Origin: an uncultured Bdellovibrionales bacterium
GTDB taxonomy: Bacteria; Bdellovibrionota; UBA1018; CAIPTA01
NCBI GenBank assembly: GCA_964416595.1
Contig: CAYQES010000006.1
Span: forward strand, 44,414 to 108,413
Direction: 5' to 3'
DNA length: 64,000 nucleotides
Shown: positions 54,589-62,271 of the stretch, one piece after another
How the letters are laid out: the number at the start of each line of letters is the position of its first letter
Position numbering within the stretch: the first letter of the stretch is position 1
Notes under the pieces: model-generated
Databases searched by the model: none
Told to the model about the DNA's origin: nothing
What the model saw: the letters and a program-made list of their open reading frames with translations, nothing else
Translations under genes and position numbers: made by a program

Positions 54589-55857
54589 TCATAATTCCAA
54601 AATAGAAAATAAGTTCGCGTCTTCCATGGCATTTTGCGTAGCCCTTTGGGCTTCGCGGTTCATCTGTTTTATTTGCGGGTCAGACAAAACTTTTTCCACT
54701 GCTTGAGCAATACGCTGGGCCCCCGCTTTTCTTAAAGGGAGCACTAATCCTAACTGACGATCTTTTATTCTCTGCGCGATGAAGGGTTGATCATTGGTGA
54801 TTGGAATGCAAACCATTGGCACGCCAAAGTAAATGCATTCCGCCACGCTATTGGCCCCCCCGTGCGTGATCATGCACGCCGCGTATGTGAGCACGGAAAT
54901 TTGGTCCACAAATGGCACGAGTTCTACATTCGGCGGCAAGCCTTCTAATTCCTTTAGCTGGGTGTTATATCGCCAGGCACCGCGGGAAAGGAGAAATTTT
55001 CGATGGGGGAGCAGGGTCGCCGCCTCGATCACATTCTGGTAGAGATCCAGTAAACCTGTCTGGAGAGTACCAAAAGAGCAATACACCAAATTTGGGTCGC
55101 GCTCCGTAACCACATTTTTTGCATGATCCAGTAAGCGCATGGGCCCGAGGTAATGCATCGACCTCTGCTCCCGGGGTAAAGGTCGCATGGGAAAATCTAG
55201 AAACTCGGGCATCTGCGTGAGCGTGAGAAGCGGAGAATAACTTTCCCGTAAAGAACAAAAAGTCGGTTGCCCATTGGATTTAGCCAAGTGATTGCCCTCT
55301 CGCAGAATCATTCCATACCAAGATTCCAGTACGAGATGCATCACTTTATTCAACCATCGCCGCCAACGGGAATTTGATTTATAACCCCAGGGTGCGCCGG
55401 GGGGGGGATACTGAGGGTCTAAAGAAAGGGGAAAGTGAATGGCGCAAGCGAAGGAATAAAAAGGCACACCCACCGCCTGGGCGATGGCTGCTCCCTGAAA
55501 CTGCAACTGGTCCACCAAAAATTTATCAATTCCTAAGGCGCGTGCGTGGCTCGGAATTTCCTTGCACATCATCTGCGCGAGGCGCCGATGAAGGAGGCCA
55601 GTGCGTAGGGTGGTCAAAAGCCCGTGGCCGCGGGAGAGTTTACCCCACTCTCTTTCCATCGAACCTAAAGGAAAAGTTTTTTGGCCAATTTCCACCGCTT
55701 CGACGCCTTGCTGACGTACAAGGGCAAGAGAATCGGCTAGTGTAAAAACGGTGACGCGATGGCCTCGTTTCCTCAAAATCCGCCCCAAATTGCATAAGGG
55801 GAGCAAATGTCCAGGCACCGGCGAACTAATGATTCCGAAATGATGGGTGGATTTCAA
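54589..55857 (-). CDS. GT1-family UDP-glycosyltransferase (MGT / CrtX / RhlB-like)
   Basis: The N-terminus is SSPVPGHLLP. The UDP-sugar-binding signature is HGGANSVAECIYFGVPMVCIPITNDQPFIAQR. Confidence 0.75.
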   Translation of the reverse strand: MKSTHHFGIISSPVPGHLLPLCNLGRILRKRGHRVTVFTLADSLALVRQQGVEAVEIGQKTFPLGSMEREWGKLSRGHGLLTTLRTGLLHRRLAQMMCKEIPSHARALGIDKFLVDQLQFQGAAIAQAVGVPFYSFACAIHFPLSLDPQYPPPGAPWGYKSNSRWRRWLNKVMHLVLESWYGMILREGNHLAKSNGQPTFCSLRESYSPLLTLTQMPEFLDFPMRPLPREQRSMHYLGPMRLLDHAKNVVTERDPNLVYCSFGTLQTGLLDLYQNVIEAATLLPHRKFLLSRGAWRYNTQLKELEGLPPNVELVPFVDQISVLTYAACMITHGGANSVAECIYFGVPMVCIPITNDQPFIAQRIKDRQLGLVLPLRKAGAQRIAQAVEKVLSDPQIKQMNREAQRATQNAMEDANLFSILEL

Positions 55858-56921
55858 TGGTTCTTCCTCTCACGCATCCATTCGCGCCCAACCCGGCCTA
55901 GGGTATGCCAGAAGGAAACGCGTAAGCTGTTGTGAAAGGCGTGGGGTGGTTGGATTTTTTCTAGGGCCAACGCGTGGGCTGCGGGCAAGGAGTAGTAGGG
56001 AATGCCCGGGAAAAGATGATGGGTGGCGTGGAAATTCAAATGGAAGGGGGCCCAGATCCACGCCAAGCTGCTGCGCTCTACCACGTTCGTGCCGGCGAGG
56101 TGCACGTCCAAATAATGCTCTTTTTCCGTAAAACCCACGTGATAGTTATGTAAAACGAGCGTGCGCACAAATGCTGTCGCTGAAGAAAAAGCCACGCCAA
56201 AATACCATACCAATAATAACTTCGGATTATGAAAGGTCCAGGTGGCGCCAATTTGGACCATTGTGATCACTAGGCACGCGAGGTCAGCGCGGAGCATCTC
56301 GCTTGCCTCCTCGGGGTCTGGACCCACACGCTGGAATCCACTTTCAAATTGAATCGTAGACCACCGGCGAAAAACAAAATCACGCGCGCGCTTTCCCACT
56401 AGTACCCAGCCAATCGTAACGAAGCTGAAACGCAACAAAAGGATCAGCGGAGAAGCCAAAGGCTCAAGCACAATCTTAAACGGCAAAAAAAACCAAGGAT
56501 TCTTTTCCCGCAAGTCAAAATGTTCCGGATCGTCAATAGTGCCAAACCTATGCGCCGAATGGTGCACTCGGTGCAGGCGAAATAAATAGATTGGCAGCCT
56601 CAGCCAGTAGCCGAGAAATAGATCGTAGATCCTAGCCAAATGAGAAACTTTCATTTCTAAATGTACCACCTCGTGAGCAAAACCAATCGCACGGGAAATT
56701 AAAATGATGCTAATGAGGAAAAAAATAAAATTTAGCGGTTTTGAATTCCAGCTGTAGCAGGCGAGAAAGAATCCCAACCACGCGAGGCTTGCCACCAAGA
56801 AGAAATCGCGGAAAATGCGCCCGTGGGATACGAAAAAAAGTGAACGTTGCTGAGAGGCTTCCCTTAGTTCCGTCATAGAAATACTGTCAGACCAATTGAC
56901 TTTCTGACCACTAGTGTTCAT
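55854..56921 (-). CDS. Membrane fatty-acid-desaturase-family di-iron enzyme (His boxes HEVVH / HRVHH / HATHH)
   Basis: Three His boxes with desaturase spacing and multiple transmembrane segments are present. The stop overlaps the downstream GT start by 4 nt. Confidence 0.75.
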   Translation of the reverse strand: MNTSGQKVNWSDSISMTELREASQQRSLFFVSHGRIFRDFFLVASLAWLGFFLACYSWNSKPLNFIFFLISIILISRAIGFAHEVVHLEMKVSHLARIYDLFLGYWLRLPIYLFRLHRVHHSAHRFGTIDDPEHFDLREKNPWFFLPFKIVLEPLASPLILLLRFSFVTIGWVLVGKRARDFVFRRWSTIQFESGFQRVGPDPEEASEMLRADLACLVITMVQIGATWTFHNPKLLLVWYFGVAFSSATAFVRTLVLHNYHVGFTEKEHYLDVHLAGTNVVERSSLAWIWAPFHLNFHATHHLFPGIPYYSLPAAHALALEKIQPPHAFHNSLRVSFWHTLGRVGREWMRERKNH

Positions 56922-57832
56922 GTAATACTGCTCCGGTACGGAGCTACCGCGAAGAGATGTTCCCGCTCTAAGGATTCCGTGAGAGTGCGGTGGCCTGATT
57001 TCTCGATAAGAGTGCGAATTTTTTTCAGTCGCTCACCGATTCTTCCTTCCCAATCAATTTCCCGCAAGAAATCTTCTTTTTCATTGTTGGTCATGGCCCT
57101 GCCTTCGGCTTCTATCGCTTGGCTTACCCAGTTGGCACTCACCAAGGCTTTCATGAAAATTCGCGTGGCTTCAAAAATCCTATCGTGGTCATTAGCAGAA
57201 ACAGTCGATTGCGACCAGAGGAGTAAACCGCTCCCATGGTGATTGGCTTCGTCTTGAAGCACATTGGTAAAAACTGCTCTTAGTTGAGGATCTTTACAGC
57301 CCTCTCGTAAACTATGGTAGTGCATAATTCCGAAACCCTCGAGCAGCACTTGCACGATAAAAATAAGCACTTCACGACTACTCCCAGTGATGATTTCGGA
57401 TAGTGCGGGCAGTAGGGGGTGAAATTCATATTTTGAACCGGGTTGCTCCACGAGAAAGAGTTCGATCATTTTGCGGTGGAGAGTTTCTTCACCAACCATC
57501 AGGGAGTATAACGACTTTTCTTCTACCGATTCCGCCAAGAGAATCATTTTGGCGCCGAAGTGCAGTCCCGATTTTTCAATGAAGTAAGCGAGCGTAAGGC
57601 TCTGTTGGCTCAACCTCCGCAGCACCTGTTCGCGGGATGCGGAGCTCATCGAGCGAAAAATAGCACTGCGATCTAGCCCCCACTGAGTATCATCCCAATA
57701 TTGGCCCGCAAAATCAGCGCCAGGAAGCGGAAGCTCTATTTTCTTACGCAGAACAGAATCCAATAAAGCGGTAAGACGAGAATCCACGGAAAGATTAGGA
57801 GCGCTTAAACCGGAGGTGAAGTTAATTTTCAT
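56918..57832 (-). CDS. Ferritin-like di-iron-carboxylate protein (putative oxygenase/desaturase)
   Basis: Two E-x-x-H motifs (EETLH, DEANHH) and additional conserved Glu (YFIEKSG, LLEGFG) suggest a four-helix-bundle di-iron site. Confidence 0.45.
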   Translation of the reverse strand: MKINFTSGLSAPNLSVDSRLTALLDSVLRKKIELPLPGADFAGQYWDDTQWGLDRSAIFRSMSSASREQVLRRLSQQSLTLAYFIEKSGLHFGAKMILLAESVEEKSLYSLMVGEETLHRKMIELFLVEQPGSKYEFHPLLPALSEIITGSSREVLIFIVQVLLEGFGIMHYHSLREGCKDPQLRAVFTNVLQDEANHHGSGLLLWSQSTVSANDHDRIFEATRIFMKALVSANWVSQAIEAEGRAMTNNEKEDFLREIDWEGRIGERLKKIRTLIEKSGHRTLTESLEREHLFAVAPYRSSIT

Positions 57833-58463
57833 GTGTCATCTCCACTTTTTGGTTGGGATACAAACGCGTGCCTGCCTCTACTTGCGCTTTTTCCGCAATA
57901 CATACACCGGGGGCAACGTGGCTCGCATAGCCGACCAGCGAACGAGCGCCGATCGTGAGGGGTTTATAATAGACGAGAATGCGTTCGTGCGTCCTCTTCA
58001 CGATGTGGCCGGAGAGGGTTACGTCGTTTCCAAAAATGACAAAGTTGCCTAACTTAAGTGCGGTTCGATCAAATACCTGTACCCCCGGCGACCAAAAAAT
58101 GCCGGTGCCAATTTTACTTCCCCACAGCCGCAGCCAGAAACTAAACGCACCAGGGAAAAGCATCAGCATCCGTTCGAAGAATGAAAAGGAGATAAAAAAA
58201 ATCTGGAGACGGTTAGAGATGTACCAACTATTTGCGACCGCCTCCCGGCGTCCCACGTAACTTACGCCTTCGCGAATTGGGAAAAACAAAGCAAAAATTC
58301 GCCACAGGAGAAGCGGCAAAACAAAAATAACCATTGGCAACAGCGATAACTTAAGCCAACTAAAAGAAATGAAAGTGGAAGCCACCAGAACGCCGATTAT
58401 CAATAGATGCAAGGCCGGAAAAAATGTGGCCGCAGTTTCAAAGATCTTTGGAGGCTTGCGCAT
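57822..58463 (-). CDS. Membrane-anchored hexapeptide-repeat (left-handed beta-helix) acyl/acetyltransferase
   Basis: Two N-terminal transmembrane helices are present. The LbH repeats are IGTGIFWSPGVQVF, LGNFVIFGNDVTLSGHIV and IGARSLVGYASHVAPGVCIAEKAQV. Confidence 0.55.
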   Translation of the reverse strand: MRKPPKIFETAATFFPALHLLIIGVLVASTFISFSWLKLSLLPMVIFVLPLLLWRIFALFFPIREGVSYVGRREAVANSWYISNRLQIFFISFSFFERMLMLFPGAFSFWLRLWGSKIGTGIFWSPGVQVFDRTALKLGNFVIFGNDVTLSGHIVKRTHERILVYYKPLTIGARSLVGYASHVAPGVCIAEKAQVEAGTRLYPNQKVEMTHEN

Positions 58464-59190
58464 CGCCTAACCTTTCTGGGAAAAGGCGCACTAGCGAGCT
58501 GTAACGCGTGTTTTTTCCTTCTTTCAAAGCGACGAACTCATGAAAAATGGCCTCCATCAAATCGGCCGTAAGATCCAAGGAACGCAACATAACCGCTTCC
58601 ACTGCGCGCAGATCCTCGTCGGAATTAACAAATTGTTTAATCACTTCCGCCACTTCGATGGCATGGGTTTGGTCGATTTCTGCGTGTTGCACAAGAAAGC
58701 TCATTTGCTCGGGCTGCACTCCTAAAGAGCTAGTGAGCATCTTTAGGATCGGTTGAATGTATTCGTAAGATCGCTCTGCCCAGTAGCTATATCCCAGCCG
58801 GCCCAATGGATTTCCTTCGCGGGAAATTTGGTAAAGGTAGTCCACCAACGCTTGGGTTTCGGGCAGGGGCACGGGTAAATCATCGGGGGTGATCGACTGA
58901 CCAGAAATTTTTTGCAGATCGTAGAGAGCTAGGTTCTCGTGGCCTAATTCCTCGGTGGCGTGCTTTAGGCAATAACGGAGGTAATTGATATCAATATTCT
59001 CCGAACGCGCGGCCACCGCGGCTTGATTTTTCGCGTTGTGCCTAGTGTAGTGATAGGTTTCCACTAAATAAACTGCATAGAGTCTTAAATCAGCAAAGTT
59101 AGGCGATAGGGCTCGCAAGAGATTTGGACGATCCATGAGAGATCCCATGCGCGAGAGTAGGCTTTGGTCTAATGTATCCATTTTTTTCAC
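58438..59190 (-). CDS. Heme-oxygenase-like fold iron enzyme (HDO / iron-containing redox enzyme family, TenA/PqqC-like)
   Basis: An all-helical 250-aa protein with candidate metal ligands in TEELGHE and HAEIDQTHAIE. The start overlaps the upstream gene by 4 nt. Confidence 0.45.
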   Translation of the reverse strand: MKKMDTLDQSLLSRMGSLMDRPNLLRALSPNFADLRLYAVYLVETYHYTRHNAKNQAAVAARSENIDINYLRYCLKHATEELGHENLALYDLQKISGQSITPDDLPVPLPETQALVDYLYQISREGNPLGRLGYSYWAERSYEYIQPILKMLTSSLGVQPEQMSFLVQHAEIDQTHAIEVAEVIKQFVNSDEDLRAVEAVMLRSLDLTADLMEAIFHEFVALKEGKNTRYSSLVRLFPERLGDAQASKDL

Positions 59191-59921
59191 GGGAAAATTC
59201 CCCCGGCCTTGGCCAAGAGGCCGTTGCCAAAATATTTTTGAAGTTTTTGACGAATCTTTAATTCCGTGGTTTGGATCCGCTCAGCCCTACTGATGATCGT
59301 TTCCATGGAAGCCGCAAGTAGTAGATAATGGCCGTTCCTTGAAGGGAGTTCGAATGCTTGTGGTAATATGTTGCGCATGCCAAATTTGGCGTAGATCGGA
59401 AACTTTGCTTCCCGGCAAACTGCCACGAGACCTTTCGGGTTAAACCGATCCACCGCAAGTTTTCCCGCCGAGCAAATCAGAAAGCGGAGGATCAGGGGGC
59501 TCAAAACTATATCTGGATTTATTACCAAGCGGCTAAATTCAACGTGGTCACGGTATTTTTGCCAATCCACCGGCAAGTCACTCAATAGCGACTGCGCCTC
59601 GAACGGAAATTTCGTTGCCCGGATGGAGGCGATGAGGGTGTGGCCAAGCCGTAGGGCGAGATGCACGCTACGGGCATCCACTGCGCGCTCGAGCTCAACT
59701 TCCTTCTCGTCACGAGCGCACATATAAGGCGCATGCCGCGTAAAATAAGCGGTTCGCAGGTTTGCAACGTCCAGGAGAGCTCGAGGATTCACTAAAGGTT
59801 CGATGAAGTCGAGCTTGAGATCGCTGGGTAATGCATTCAGTGTTTCTTGTGTTAGTTGGTACGCTATACTCTCACGGAAATGCACGGCGCCTCCTTTCGT
59901 AAATACGTCCAATTGCGCCAT
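59187..59921 (-). CDS. GNAT-fold N-acyltransferase of the LuxI / FeeM / OlsB (N-acyl amino acid synthase) superfamily
   Basis: LRTAYFTRHAPYMCARDEKEVELERAVDARSVHLALRLGHTLIASIR parallels the R-x-x-vF...E-x-D-x-x-D...H-l-l...G-t-l-R core of autoinducer-synthase-like enzymes. The long ORF extends to 60125 but would overlap the upstream desaturase by 262 nt. The internal Met at 59921 was chosen. Confidence 0.45.
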   Translation of the reverse strand: MAQLDVFTKGGAVHFRESIAYQLTQETLNALPSDLKLDFIEPLVNPRALLDVANLRTAYFTRHAPYMCARDEKEVELERAVDARSVHLALRLGHTLIASIRATKFPFEAQSLLSDLPVDWQKYRDHVEFSRLVINPDIVLSPLILRFLICSAGKLAVDRFNPKGLVAVCREAKFPIYAKFGMRNILPQAFELPSRNGHYLLLAASMETIISRAERIQTTELKIRQKLQKYFGNGLLAKAGGIFP

Positions 59922-61009
59922 AGAAGGGTGGCAAAAAAACGCCAAAATCCTTGGCGGCGAGAAAAACCAAAAAAACTTAGCTGCTCGGTCGTGAGTAACT
60001 GGTGTTTTAGGTAAAAATGTAAGCGCCACTGCTGGATCCAAGTTAGGCTCGGTCCCAGGTGGTGCGAAAAATGAAATATTTGTCCCCAAGGTCCGCCACC
60101 TACTAGAAGTTCCGTGATTCCACACCCCAATTCGCGGGTGCCGGCATTTAACTCCGCGGGCATTAGATTATGTTCAAAAGAATCACGAATCCTATCGAGA
60201 GAAAGCCCAACCCAGGTGGAAATGAAAACCAATCCGATCAGCGCGATCCACCAGTCAAGGTAGCGCGACAATAAAATCAACTCGATGCTTAAAGTTACCG
60301 CGCCCACAAAATAAGAGACTAAACGCGATCGCGTCCAAGTTTCTTCACCGTAAACCTGAAAATCCACCTTAAAAAGAACGCCGGCGCCGGGCAGGAGGGT
60401 TTTCGCGAGTCTCCTCGGATCTACAAATTGCACAAAAGTTTGATCTTTAAGGGTGCCTAGCTGGGAATGGTGGCTCGCATGATTTTCAGCGTAAAAAAAT
60501 GGATCGGCAAAAAATAGACGGCAAGCGTTTTGGGCGAGAAAGTGTAAAAATTTCGATTTCGTGACGCGCCTAATGGTCTGGTGCGCTGCCCATTCGTGCA
60601 TCGTATAGATTACCCACTGGTAAGCAAATACTCCGTGAAATAGACCCACCGCGAGGGCCACCAAGAGGGGATGTAAGCCGGCCTTTAAAAGTAATGGTGG
60701 AAACCAAGTGAGCAAAAGCACGAACAACAAAAATAGAAATAACACTGGCACTAGTTGTAAGAGAAAAGCGGAGGTGTGTTGTTGGCTATCTTTACGCAAC
60801 AAGGTGGTTATAAATAGTTTTATTTTTTCATTCTGAATTACTGAAAGACGAACACCCTGTATCGAATCATGTTCGCGGGAGTAGCGAGAAAATGCTGAAA
60901 TTTCGGCGGGATATGTTTTCATTTCGACCGACTCCATCCACTCTATGACATCGGGATGCCTGTTTGCGCGAAGAAATACCCTCGCCACAATAGATAGCAT
61001 AAAATTCAA
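59864..61009 (-). CDS. Membrane fatty-acid-desaturase-family di-iron enzyme (His boxes HEWAAH / HASHH / HFSHH); first gene of the operon
   Basis: Three His boxes and four or more transmembrane segments are present. Confidence 0.75.
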   Translation of the reverse strand: MNFMLSIVARVFLRANRHPDVIEWMESVEMKTYPAEISAFSRYSREHDSIQGVRLSVIQNEKIKLFITTLLRKDSQQHTSAFLLQLVPVLFLFLLFVLLLTWFPPLLLKAGLHPLLVALAVGLFHGVFAYQWVIYTMHEWAAHQTIRRVTKSKFLHFLAQNACRLFFADPFFYAENHASHHSQLGTLKDQTFVQFVDPRRLAKTLLPGAGVLFKVDFQVYGEETWTRSRLVSYFVGAVTLSIELILLSRYLDWWIALIGLVFISTWVGLSLDRIRDSFEHNLMPAELNAGTRELGCGITELLVGGGPWGQIFHFSHHLGPSLTWIQQWRLHFYLKHQLLTTEQLSFFGFSRRQGFWRFFATLLWRNWTYLRKEAPCISVRV

Positions 61010-61199: not shown

Positions 61200-62114
61200 C
61201 TAAAAACACGGCTTATATTCTCGTGCTACCCGCAAAGTTTTCTGACCTGGTTTGCTCTGGGGTCGTAGCACTTGCCAATAATTTTTGTTTGAAGGAAAAA
61301 TCTTTCCCGTGCGAGCGAGATCTCGTCCCAAAATCGTAAGTCCGCACTCCAAGTTCTGCACTCCATCCAGAGAATCCATGCCCCGGCGGCAGCCATAGGC
61401 GTATTCTTTTCCGAGATGCAATTGCAATAAACCGGCGGCGATGCCGTTTACTCCCTGGGCTTTTACGCGCTCATTGCAGGAGCTTTCGAAATTGGCCATG
61501 GAAGCGATCAACCACACCCAGAAATTCTTTTTGTCTGCCTCGTTCATTTCCCGAAAGCGGGGGCAAACCATATCTAGATCTGCGTAATGATCCGCAAAAA
61601 GCTGGGGGTGTTCCTGGGGATTGATGCGATTCATAAGATAAGCGCCCCAATTGCCAAACTCTCCCCGCTCGTTAATGAAGCGTGTGCAGTTTTTATTCAC
61701 GCCAAGTGCTTTCGGATCAAAAGGGTGACGGCTGGTGGTATTAGTAGAAAATACTTCCTCCGCCGTTTTTTTCTCCGAGCCCACTTCCACAGACTCCACT
61801 ACAGGTTGTTTAAATAAGTAAGCGGGTCGCTCCACTCGCAAGGTTTCGCCCACTTTTACGGTCATGCCTTTTTCCAACTGCAGCCAATATTTTTTTCCTT
61901 TCACCAGCACTTGGGCGAAGTGATGACCGCCAGCTAAAACTCGCAATCCCACAACGGGATAACTATCTCCAGGCTGAGCGATGCCTGCCACTTGTTCCTG
62001 GGCGGAGAGAGTGAGGAGTTCAGGCAGGCCTGTTTCCTGGCCAAAAGCTAATCTGGCGGTGAAAAGTAAAGCGAGCCCCACGGCTAGCCAGGTGGTTAAG
62101 TTTATTCCCTTCAT
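61200..62114 (-). CDS. Secreted lytic transglycosylase-like protein (SLT domain)
   Basis: The signal peptide is MKGINLTTWLAVGLALLFTARLAFG. The SLT catalytic E-S motif is FESSCNE, with a downstream GLLQL motif. Confidence 0.6.
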   Translation of the reverse strand: MKGINLTTWLAVGLALLFTARLAFGQETGLPELLTLSAQEQVAGIAQPGDSYPVVGLRVLAGGHHFAQVLVKGKKYWLQLEKGMTVKVGETLRVERPAYLFKQPVVESVEVGSEKKTAEEVFSTNTTSRHPFDPKALGVNKNCTRFINERGEFGNWGAYLMNRINPQEHPQLFADHYADLDMVCPRFREMNEADKKNFWVWLIASMANFESSCNERVKAQGVNGIAAGLLQLHLGKEYAYGCRRGMDSLDGVQNLECGLTILGRDLARTGKIFPSNKNYWQVLRPQSKPGQKTLRVAREYKPCF

Positions 62115-62231
62115 ACGTATGCCTCCTTGAAGTCAAGCAACGCTGAACGGAATGGAAAAAAACTCTGCAACCGGTCGGGTCGGCTGAAGAATTCATCAAA
62201 TTGGGCGTGAGTTCAGTATGTATGCGCTTGT

Positions 62232-62271
62232 AAAGATTTGTCAAAAAAATCTTTAAACGGTTCCGTTTAAA
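62232..62271. promoter_or_regulatory. Nested inverted repeats in the AT-rich kdsB upstream region: AAAGATTT-N7-AAATCTTT overlapping TTTAAACGG-tt-CCGTTTAAA
   Basis: The repeats were read directly. They are followed by the small hairpin AGTTGC-ggt-GCAACT plus CTTTTTC at 62326-62347. Confidence 0.3.

Follow-up and report, generated by a model that had tools for sequence, protein, structure and literature searches.

How much of a long open reading frame (ORF) is gene, and what would that gene make? The locus that raises this question lies on the minus strand of a 64,000-nucleotide stretch of DNA from an uncultured Bdellovibrionales bacterium (contig CAYQES010000006.1 of assembly GCA_964416595.1, positions 44,414 to 108,413), which we refer to, at its whole length, as the window, and whose own numbering is used throughout. 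Here a GTG-initiated ORF of 312 codons (59187..60125) carries an LRTAYF...ARDEKEVELERAVDARSVHLALRLGHTLIASIR core and overlaps the upstream, desaturase-like ORF (59864..61009, also on the minus strand and ending in a TAG at 59864-59866) by 262 nt in a different frame; two further starts lie in frame within it, an ATG at 59921 (codon 69) and a GTG at 59885 (codon 81). An earlier note made from the sequence had described this arrangement, all of which is present, and had read the core as that of a LuxI/FeeM/OlsB-like N-acyltransferase. Its reading of the sequence turns out to be essentially right. Judged by its homologues and by a predicted structure, the gene is real and encodes a very divergent enzyme of the GCN5-related N-acetyltransferase (GNAT) fold, which belongs to the autoinducer-synthase-like branch as a distinct subfamily closest to the FeeM-type N-acyl amino acid synthases. 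By homology, modelling and analogy we think it probable that this GNAT is an N-acyltransferase that acylates a small amine, the amide then being tailored by the other enzymes of its operon. Its main interest, more than the start-codon question, is its link to an orphan clade of heme-oxygenase-like diiron oxidases (HDOs), a member of which is encoded directly downstream.

A divergent subfamily closest to FeeM

Direct searches recover almost nothing of this family. In hmmscan, neither the 312-aa form nor the 244-aa form that starts at the ATG matched any Pfam or NCBIfam model even at E<=10, the NCBIfam models for N-acyl amino acid synthases included. Phmmer against the sequences of the PDB returned only a chance match to a DARPin, word-indexed homology searches gave either the protein itself or three to seven members of its family, and a scan of GTDB genomes with the GNAT protein as query found nothing, so that the window's own genome is not one of the species representatives there. 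An exhaustive HMMER scan of 1.84 billion representatives recovered 118 relatives at E<=1e-3 (28 of them at E<=1e-10), the best being 34% identical and all but one having a length of 103-264 aa. Seventy-nine members were aligned, and this alignment is the basis of the consensus, the profile, the motif counts and the AlphaFold2 model described below.

Among these 79 homologues, FeeM (PF21926) is the Pfam family matched most often at E<=0.1 (50/79, the best at 4.3e-8), followed by Acetyltransf_1 (31/79), the OlsB-type Acetyltransf_5 (15/79) and Autoind_synth (11/79). The family consensus likewise exceeds the gathering cut-off of FeeM (47.3 bits vs 27, over profile positions 2-142 of 158) and that of Acetyltransf_1 (36.7 bits vs 20.7), and falls under those of Autoind_synth (PF00765, 18.5 bits vs 24) and Acetyltransf_5 (PF13444, 19.6 bits vs 22.4). 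Because these last two models stay under threshold, FeeM-like is the closest label, and the LuxI and OlsB parts of the name given in the earlier note have to be dropped. When the family profile was searched against PDB sequences, the acyl-homoserine lactone (AHL) synthase TofI (3p2f) came first, with an E-value of 5e-8, followed by ordinary GNATs; by sequence comparison, then, FeeM is the closest Pfam family and TofI the closest solved relative. An alignment to the Acetyltransf_5 and Autoind_synth hidden Markov models (HMMs) had been proposed as a check, and run directly it gives no match, only a minority of the relatives reaching these models. Taken alone, it would have led us wrongly to abandon the superfamily, as the family is visible only through distant relatives and structure; the assignment itself is upheld by the homologue scans, the consensus, the TofI match and the model. 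We note that, since Pfam and NCBIfam miss the subfamily for this sequence, such enzymes are presumably undercounted when genomes are mined for N-acyl amino acids, aminolipids or AHL-like signals.

The AlphaFold2 model (pLDDT 90.8, pTM 0.86) has a GNAT alpha/beta fold. Foldseek found 407 PDB matches at E<=1e-3, the top ones all GNATs with a probability of 1.00; FeeM (2g0b) gave the highest TM-scores (TMq 0.57, TMt 0.73), and the coenzyme A (CoA)-dependent AHL synthases BjaI, RpaI and MesI are among the top matches. The likeness to FeeM thus extends to the fold, to the consensus score, and to a single domain of about 200-240 aa from which the acetyl-CoA motif is absent. The differences are nonetheless considerable: the window protein itself has no score on the FeeM model, identity in the structural alignment is 13-14%, the family has invariants of its own (D82xRSxH, C169 and R195xxxY199), and it is linked to an HDO rather than to fee-type or PEP-CTERM/exosortase contexts.

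Five residues are invariant across the family (R101, E128, R131, G164 and R195, in the numbering of the 244-aa form), and they sit within a longer signature that runs R56-x3-[YF]-x5-[YH], D82-x-R-S-x-H87 and R101-x-T-x-x-P-x-E108 in the N-terminal half, and E128-x-[SG]-R131, G164, C169-[RK] and R195-x3-Y199 in the C-terminal half. The window protein (P0001) retains every family-conserved residue, so the gene looks intact; this, together with the 118 homologues found for its 3' part, argues that the ORF is not a chance frame. Through their alignment with TofI, R101 and E128-x-S-R131 fall on the LuxI-family hallmark residues R70, E101, S103 and R104. Of the full LuxI set (R24, F28, W34, D45, D48, R70, E101, S103 and R104 in LasI/LuxI numbering), a part has, on the alignment to TofI, present and conserved counterparts in R56, F60, R101, E128, S130 and R131; the position of the Trp is Tyr or His in the family, and the second Asp of D-x-x-D is Ser (D-x-R-S).

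It might be supposed from these residues that the protein is a true LuxI-type synthase, one that would acylate S-adenosylmethionine (SAM) and release an acyl-homoserine lactone or a related signal for the HDO to modify. Members of that group (PF00765; TofI 3P2F, LasI 1RO5, BjaI 5W8A) are of similar size and share the conserved Arg (CARLLP in TofI), the E-x-S-R and a similar R-x3-[FY]-x5-aromatic spacing, such that R-x3-F-x5-W, R70 and E-x-S-R, in LasI numbering, would find their equivalents in R56-x3-F-x5-Y, R101 and E128-x-S-R131. The idea would also suit the rank of TofI among solved structures, the place of BjaI, RpaI and MesI in the Foldseek list, and the DUF3419 gene that follows the GNAT-HDO pair in loci of Pseudomonas, Corallococcus and Pyrinomonadaceae, DUF3419 being presumably a BtaA-like family of SAM-dependent aminocarboxypropyl transferases. 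We nevertheless consider it very unlikely. Even the consensus stays under the Autoind_synth cut-off and few members reach that model at all; both the Trp and the second SAM-binding Asp are replaced; C169, R195 and Y199, invariants of the family's own, lie outside the LuxI motif set; the model has an extra N-terminal helix and strand, as well as a long C-terminal helix at residues 206-238; and no LuxR-type gene (Autoind_bind or GerE) was found among the 8 operon and 10 flanking proteins scanned.

At the other extreme, the gene could encode an ordinary short-chain GNAT acetyltransferase acting on an amine that the neighbouring oxidases provide, for instance in self-protection or activation, with no part in building a scaffold. 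The consensus score on Acetyltransf_1 would fit such an enzyme, as would the top Foldseek E-values, which belong to SpeG, PA3270 and PaiA, and the absence of acyl-ACP and acyl-CoA supply genes from the operon (ACP, acyl carrier protein). What makes it improbable is that 74/79 members, the window protein among them, lack the acetyl-CoA pyrophosphate-binding motif Q/R-x-x-G-x-G/A that follows beta4, that the best Pfam family is FeeM, that there is an E-x-S-R of the LuxI type and no PDB sequence other than TofI is matched significantly, and that the operon is rich in lipid-type enzymes, including two His-box desaturases. The Q/RxxGxG/A motif is degenerate in LuxI and FeeM-type enzymes too, and its absence therefore counts against an ordinary acetyltransferase and not against the GNAT fold.

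One metagenomic relative, P0117 (1009 aa), is built quite differently: it contains six tandem copies of about 40 residues that match GNAT residues 18-57, and the rest of the domain is absent. In the window protein these residues form the N-terminal helix, a strand and the start of the R-x3-F helix.

Pairing with an orphan diiron oxidase

The GNAT gene of the window is followed by that of an HDO, and this neighbourhood was examined in other genomes from the side of the oxidase. A scan of 185,579 GTDB species genomes for the HDO yielded 80 loci, selected purely by HDO homology, in which GNATs were then called with the family HMM; only HMM-confirmed ORFs were counted, as a simple six-frame caller is unreliable in GC-rich loci. 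Of these 80, 62 have a GNAT-family member adjoining the HDO on the same strand and 6 more have one nearby. The best HDO matches (49-55% identity) come from metagenome-assembled genomes (MAGs) of Bdellovibrionota (Bdellovibrionales, Bacteriovoracia, Halobacteriovorax), which in itself points to this phylum as the origin of the window, and the pair extends across Bdellovibrionota, Pseudomonadota, Myxococcota, Actinomycetota, Planctomycetota and Sericytochromatia. Besides Bdellovibrionota, Planctomycetaceae and Sericytochromatia, its hosts include Pseudomonas (with two types of cluster), Lysobacter, Trinickia, Corallococcus, Archangium, Frankia, Nocardia, Mycobacterium and Streptomyces.

The genes flanking the pair vary by lineage. 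On one metagenome contig (locus L005), the order is that of the window: His-box protein, GNAT (with a 38-nt overlap), HDO, hexapeptide transferase and ferritin-like protein. Every locus of the Bdellovibrionota type combines genes for the GNAT, the hexapeptide transferase and the ferritin-like protein, and the nearest GNAT homologues, P0002 and P0005, belong to clusters of these three without an HDO. In the first Pseudomonas type (A), the pair is joined by DUF3419, a class I/II aminotransferase and an AMP-binding enzyme, inserted between tsaC and qor/hemF; in the second (B), it is joined by a chorismate-binding enzyme with a glutamine amidotransferase, a PaaK-like adenylate-forming ligase, an NADPH-FMN reductase and an EamA exporter, which suggests an aryl-acyl donor in the lineages concerned. 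One proteobacterial MAG has a sulfotransferase and a P450 around the pair.

The five-gene insertion of type A was seen in loci L021-L039 of the Pseudomonas fluorescens group (e.g. L025, 9331-14425), which include the culturable strains HKI0770 (L028) and HKI0874 (L025). In Corallococcus (L032) and Pyrinomonadaceae (L042), too, the gene after the HDO is that of a DUF3419 protein. Clusters resembling type B are those of loci L047, L050, L052-L057 and L081, where an alpha/beta hydrolase is also found. An OlsB-like GNAT seemed to lie 3' of the HDO in Pyxidicoccus (L017); Pfam gave no confirmation, and we do not claim it.

The HDO profile matches the PDB entry 3dde with an E-value of 5e-75, and BesC only distantly (E 0.29). 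The former is a structural-genomics entry described as a 'TENA/THI-4 protein, domain of unknown function with a heme oxygenase-like fold'. Two other identities were considered for the oxidase and its setting and were set aside: a UndA-like enzyme, as UndA is absent from the PDB matches of the HDO profile, and a pvf/mgo/ham-type cluster combining an HDO with an AurF-like N-oxygenase, as the ferritin-like protein has no AurF similarity and no non-ribosomal peptide synthetase (NRPS) is present. Our literature searches, whose coverage was incomplete so that absence is no proof, found nothing on this GNAT subfamily, on GNAT-HDO pairing or on 3dde, and nothing specific on DUF3419 clusters or on aminolipids of Bdellovibrio; a recent review of HDOs contains no such enzyme.

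The linkage is close to obligatory, and it leads us to the hypothesis that the amine or amide with which the GNAT deals is either a substrate of the 3dde-like HDO clade or supplied by it. We may go one step further, and suggest tentatively, at somewhat less than even weight, that the GNAT and the 3dde-type HDO constitute a widespread two-enzyme cassette, found in at least six phyla, that makes a new class of oxidatively modified N-acyl amines (e.g. enamides, dehydro- or hydroxy-N-acyl amino acids, or an AHL-like signal), which each lineage would elaborate into lipids or secreted metabolites. In the window the elaboration would be towards a lipid, by another three diiron enzymes together with a glycosyltransferase and a membrane acyltransferase. 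If this were true, the GNAT would reveal the substrate class of an orphan HDO clade that has a PDB structure but no function. The hosts of the cassette include myxobacteria, actinomycetes and culturable strains of the Pseudomonas fluorescens group, and the homologous cassettes of the latter make knock-outs and metabolomics feasible.

A proposed acylation and tailoring pathway

The kinship of the OlsB/GlsB, LuxI and FeeM/Nas enzymes has been reviewed (PMC11631085). By analogy with FeeM, LuxI and OlsB, acyl-ACP or acyl-CoA would be the acyl donor of the window enzyme, and the acyl chain would become amide-linked to the amino group of a small amine, an amino acid being the likeliest, with Glu128 serving as the base and Arg131 and Arg101 taking part in substrate binding. 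Acylation would presumably come first, and its product would be the scaffold on which the HDO, the ferritin-like protein, the two His-box desaturases/hydroxylases, the hexapeptide acyltransferase and the glycosyltransferase act in their turn, the end product being an oxidised, possibly glycosylated N-acyl lipid. It is plausible that the GNAT would thus determine the scaffold of what the operon makes, and the GNAT and the HDO as a pair likely make an oxidised N-acyl compound. Operons are known in which a small N-acyl amino acid synthase is encoded beside an oxidase that acts on its N-acyl amino acid (PMC10404671; PMC12479983), and the operon logic of the window is the same. Their oxidase, however, belongs to the flavin nitroreductase superfamily, whereas that of the window is an HDO, and the window has no ThiF-like cyclase. 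The conserved cassette is in this respect a fresh variation on the theme of a synthase of N-acyl amino acids with a tailoring oxidase, and the gene is a new, divergent member of the superfamily.

Several observations weigh against this proposal. Since the direct Pfam and NCBIfam matches are absent, the superfamily assignment depends on transitive homology and on a predicted structure, and in that structure's Foldseek E-values FeeM and LuxI are not set apart from ordinary acetyltransferases such as SpeG and PaiA. Nor does the operon, or any of the ten flanking genes scanned, encode an acyl carrier protein, an acyl ligase or an enzyme supplying an amino acid, which leaves the acyl donor and the amine acceptor unconstrained.

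A more specific version of the same explanation would make the product a structural membrane lipid instead of a secreted metabolite. The GNAT would then be the OlsB-/GlsB-like first enzyme of an aminolipid pathway, N-acylating an amino acid with a 3-hydroxyacyl chain; the hexapeptide transferase would add the O-linked acyl group in place of OlsA, the diiron enzymes would be lipid hydroxylases or desaturases in the manner of OlsE, and the glycosyltransferase would decorate the head group. OlsB is associated with OlsA, OlsC, OlsD and OlsE, and the window GNAT is similarly co-transcribed with a second acyltransferase and with lipid-type hydroxylases/desaturases; it also shares the GNAT clan of OlsB/GlsB (PF13444) and, by analogy, the predicted chemistry from acyl-ACP to an alpha-amino group. 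The constancy of the Bdellovibrionota core (GNAT, membrane-anchored hexapeptide transferase and ferritin-like protein, with or without the HDO) would fit, as would the weak matches of the hexapeptide protein to LpxD and LpxA, both acyl-ACP-dependent beta-helix acyltransferases, the chromosomal setting among housekeeping genes, and the minority of homologues that touch Acetyltransf_5; the logic of a two-step synthesis is, moreover, known (PMC11631085). Yet we regard this version as unlikely. The consensus remains under the Acetyltransf_5 cut-off, and no PlsC-type O-acyltransferase of the OlsA/GlsA kind is present in the operon, where the partner is a membrane-anchored hexapeptide-repeat protein whose best matches are acetyltransferases (WcaF, LacA-like) and the Pls/PosA terminal domain. 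In addition, the GNAT-HDO clusters of Pseudomonas and actinobacteria, with their chorismate-binding enzymes, aryl-CoA-type ligases and exporters, look like secondary metabolism.

Where the gene begins

With the 312-aa translation as a phmmer query against all retrieved proteins and locus ORFs, every homologue alignment begins at codon 82 or later, one codon past the GTG at 59885; to the first 68 codons nothing in this set is homologous (E>0.5 throughout, the Logan contig of the window itself aside). Within the overlap the other frame encodes GGGPWGQ.FH.SHH, the conserved third His box of the upstream protein. Given the lack of homology before codon 82 and the conservation of the other frame in the desaturase-like gene, the 5' part of the long ORF is, on sequence grounds, a frame shadow, and only the 3' ~232 codons are the gene; the true start is thus internal, and the upstream stretch of some 70 codons is the frame-shadow that the earlier note had suspected. 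Translation of the whole ORF would give a GNAT with an N-terminal extension of 68 to 80 residues overlapping the desaturase gene. The frame is indeed open from 60125, but such an extension is exceedingly improbable, as it is without a homologue, the 118 relatives measure 103-264 aa with a single exception and in no case align ahead of codon 82, a Shine-Dalgarno site is missing at the GTG of 60125 (-2.0 kcal/mol), and the catalytic His box is conserved in the other frame.

Between the two internal starts, which the earlier note had left side by side, the GTG at 59885 is the better supported. The sequence AAAGGAGG that precedes it forms a duplex of -11.6 kcal/mol with the anti-Shine-Dalgarno sequence, which is under the 1st percentile of all operon positions, and the part of the upstream protein that this site overlaps is the C-terminal tail, which is not conserved. 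No such site precedes the ATG at 59921 (+0.7 kcal/mol). The Shine-Dalgarno-like sites of most other genes in the operon lie between -5.8 and -11.4 kcal/mol. At their N-termini, P0002 (MNHSFEIAK...) and P0007 (MHLAYERAS...), both among the nearest homologues, line up with MHFRESIAYQ..., and residues 1-10 of the 244-aa form have a pLDDT of 50 in the AlphaFold2 model. We therefore hold it quite likely that translation starts at the GTG, most likely coupled to the end of the upstream desaturase-like gene. Some homologues have N-terminal tails as long as that of the ATG form, and to a start at the ATG we would give a minor share of belief. There are points that tell against the GTG: public gene calls use the ATG (P0001, 244 aa), the spacer between the Shine-Dalgarno sequence and the GTG is short (4 nt), and, the exact gene being present in one genome only, the start could not be checked in close relatives. 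For practical purposes, the public call probably includes 12 codons too many, the 312-codon ORF is misleading, and cloning of the gene should begin at the GTG at 59885.

Within the 3' end of the desaturase-like gene, on the minus strand at 59940-59956, there is a hairpin resembling a terminator, CGCCAAGGATTTTGGCG, with a run of seven T after it; the ATG at 59921 comes about 20 nt downstream of it and the GTG at 59885 about 55 nt. Chance may account for it (17 such sites occur in the region, 12.7 being expected), or it may be an intra-operon attenuator or an element of RNA stability.

The operon and its surroundings

The GNAT gene stands within a tightly packed operon on the minus strand, whose junctions are tight or overlapping; its features are collected in Table 1. 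The DNA is evidently chromosomal, as metH, carB and recG occur in the wider window.

Table 1. Features of the GNAT gene and of its operon, in window coordinates
Feature	Position	Strand	Basis
Membrane His-box protein upstream of the GNAT gene (HEWAAH, HASHH, HFSHH), fatty-acid desaturase/hydroxylase type	59864..61009	-	homologue consensus on FA_desaturase, 51.3 bits (cut-off 29.7)
Frame shadow, 68 codons of the long ORF outside the gene	59922..60125	-	homologue-free; other frame encodes conserved His box
12 extra codons if the ATG at 59921 is used (244-aa form, P0001, in NCBI and Logan)	59886..59921	-	start chosen by gene callers
Shine-Dalgarno sequence AAAGGAGG, 4 nt 5' of the GTG at 59885	59890..59897	-	duplex of -11.6 kcal/mol
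FeeM/LuxI-like GNAT N-acyltransferase (predicted), preferred coding sequence, 232 aa, GTG start, TGA stop at 59187-59189	59187..59885	-	start of homology, N-termini of homologues, Shine-Dalgarno duplex, model
R101 codon, invariant Arg	59619..59621	-	aligns with the conserved AHL-synthase Arg (TofI CARLLP)
E128-F-S-R131 motif, equivalent of the LuxI-type E-x-S-R	59529..59540	-	E and R invariant in 79/79; aligns with TofI ELSR
HDO, conserved partner of the GNAT	58438..59190	-	Pfam Haem_oxygenas_2, E 1.9e-17
Membrane-anchored hexapeptide-repeat (left-handed beta-helix) acyl-/acetyltransferase	57822..58463	-	weak matches to WcaF, LpxD and Pls/PosA terminal domain; consensus over Hexapep threshold
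Ferritin-like diiron protein (E...ExxH...E...ExxH), no family assigned	56918..57832	-	motif; syntenic with the GNAT in all Bdellovibrionota-type loci
Second membrane protein of the fatty-acid desaturase/hydroxylase family	55854..56921	-	Pfam FA_desaturase, E 5.2e-19
GT1 glycosyltransferase (MGT/UDPGT-type), last gene of the operon	54589..55857	-	Pfam and NCBIfam matches

The starts of two neighbouring genes also deserve comment. The upstream His-box protein, which itself misses Pfam FA_desaturase (its homologue consensus passes), is 37% identical to its counterpart in L005 over residues 30-355, residue 355 corresponding to about window position 59945. As the homology begins at residue 30 and the Shine-Dalgarno site there is better (-5.9 vs 0.0 kcal/mol), its real start is probably the ATG at 60922 (MKTYPAE), and the listed TTG at 61009 and the ATG at 61000 given in databases are both probably too far upstream. 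The start of the HDO is ambiguous (59179-59190): a GTG at 59190, which shares the tetranucleotide GTGA with the GNAT stop, comes with a Shine-Dalgarno duplex of -8.6 kcal/mol and yields an N-terminus as long as in the homologues, and the public call uses an ATG at 59181, where the site has -3.3 kcal/mol.

No Pfam model is over threshold for the ferritin-like protein (304 aa), which shows weak similarity to Ferritin_2, MiaE and aldehyde decarbonylase. Its invariant residues are E86, E116xxH119, E165 and E195xxH198. In the Bdellovibrionota loci (L002, L003, L005, L007-L016 and L044) its gene is always found together with those of the GNAT and the hexapeptide transferase. The hexapeptide transferase has an N-terminal membrane anchor; among NCBIfam models it comes closest, at a score well short of threshold, to the C-terminal domain of Pls/PosA-type NRPSs (E 2.2e-7). 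In enzymes of this type, such as poly-lysine synthetase, membrane-embedded tandem domains catalyse amide-bond formation.

The gene 5' of the operon (61200-62114, minus strand) encodes a protein of 304 aa with an apparent N-terminal signal peptide and no more than a weak match to SLT transglycosylases (E 0.033), preceded by a strong Shine-Dalgarno site of -11.4 kcal/mol. The only good promoter-like site of the region lies at 62215-62244, and for this reason transcription of the operon may begin there.

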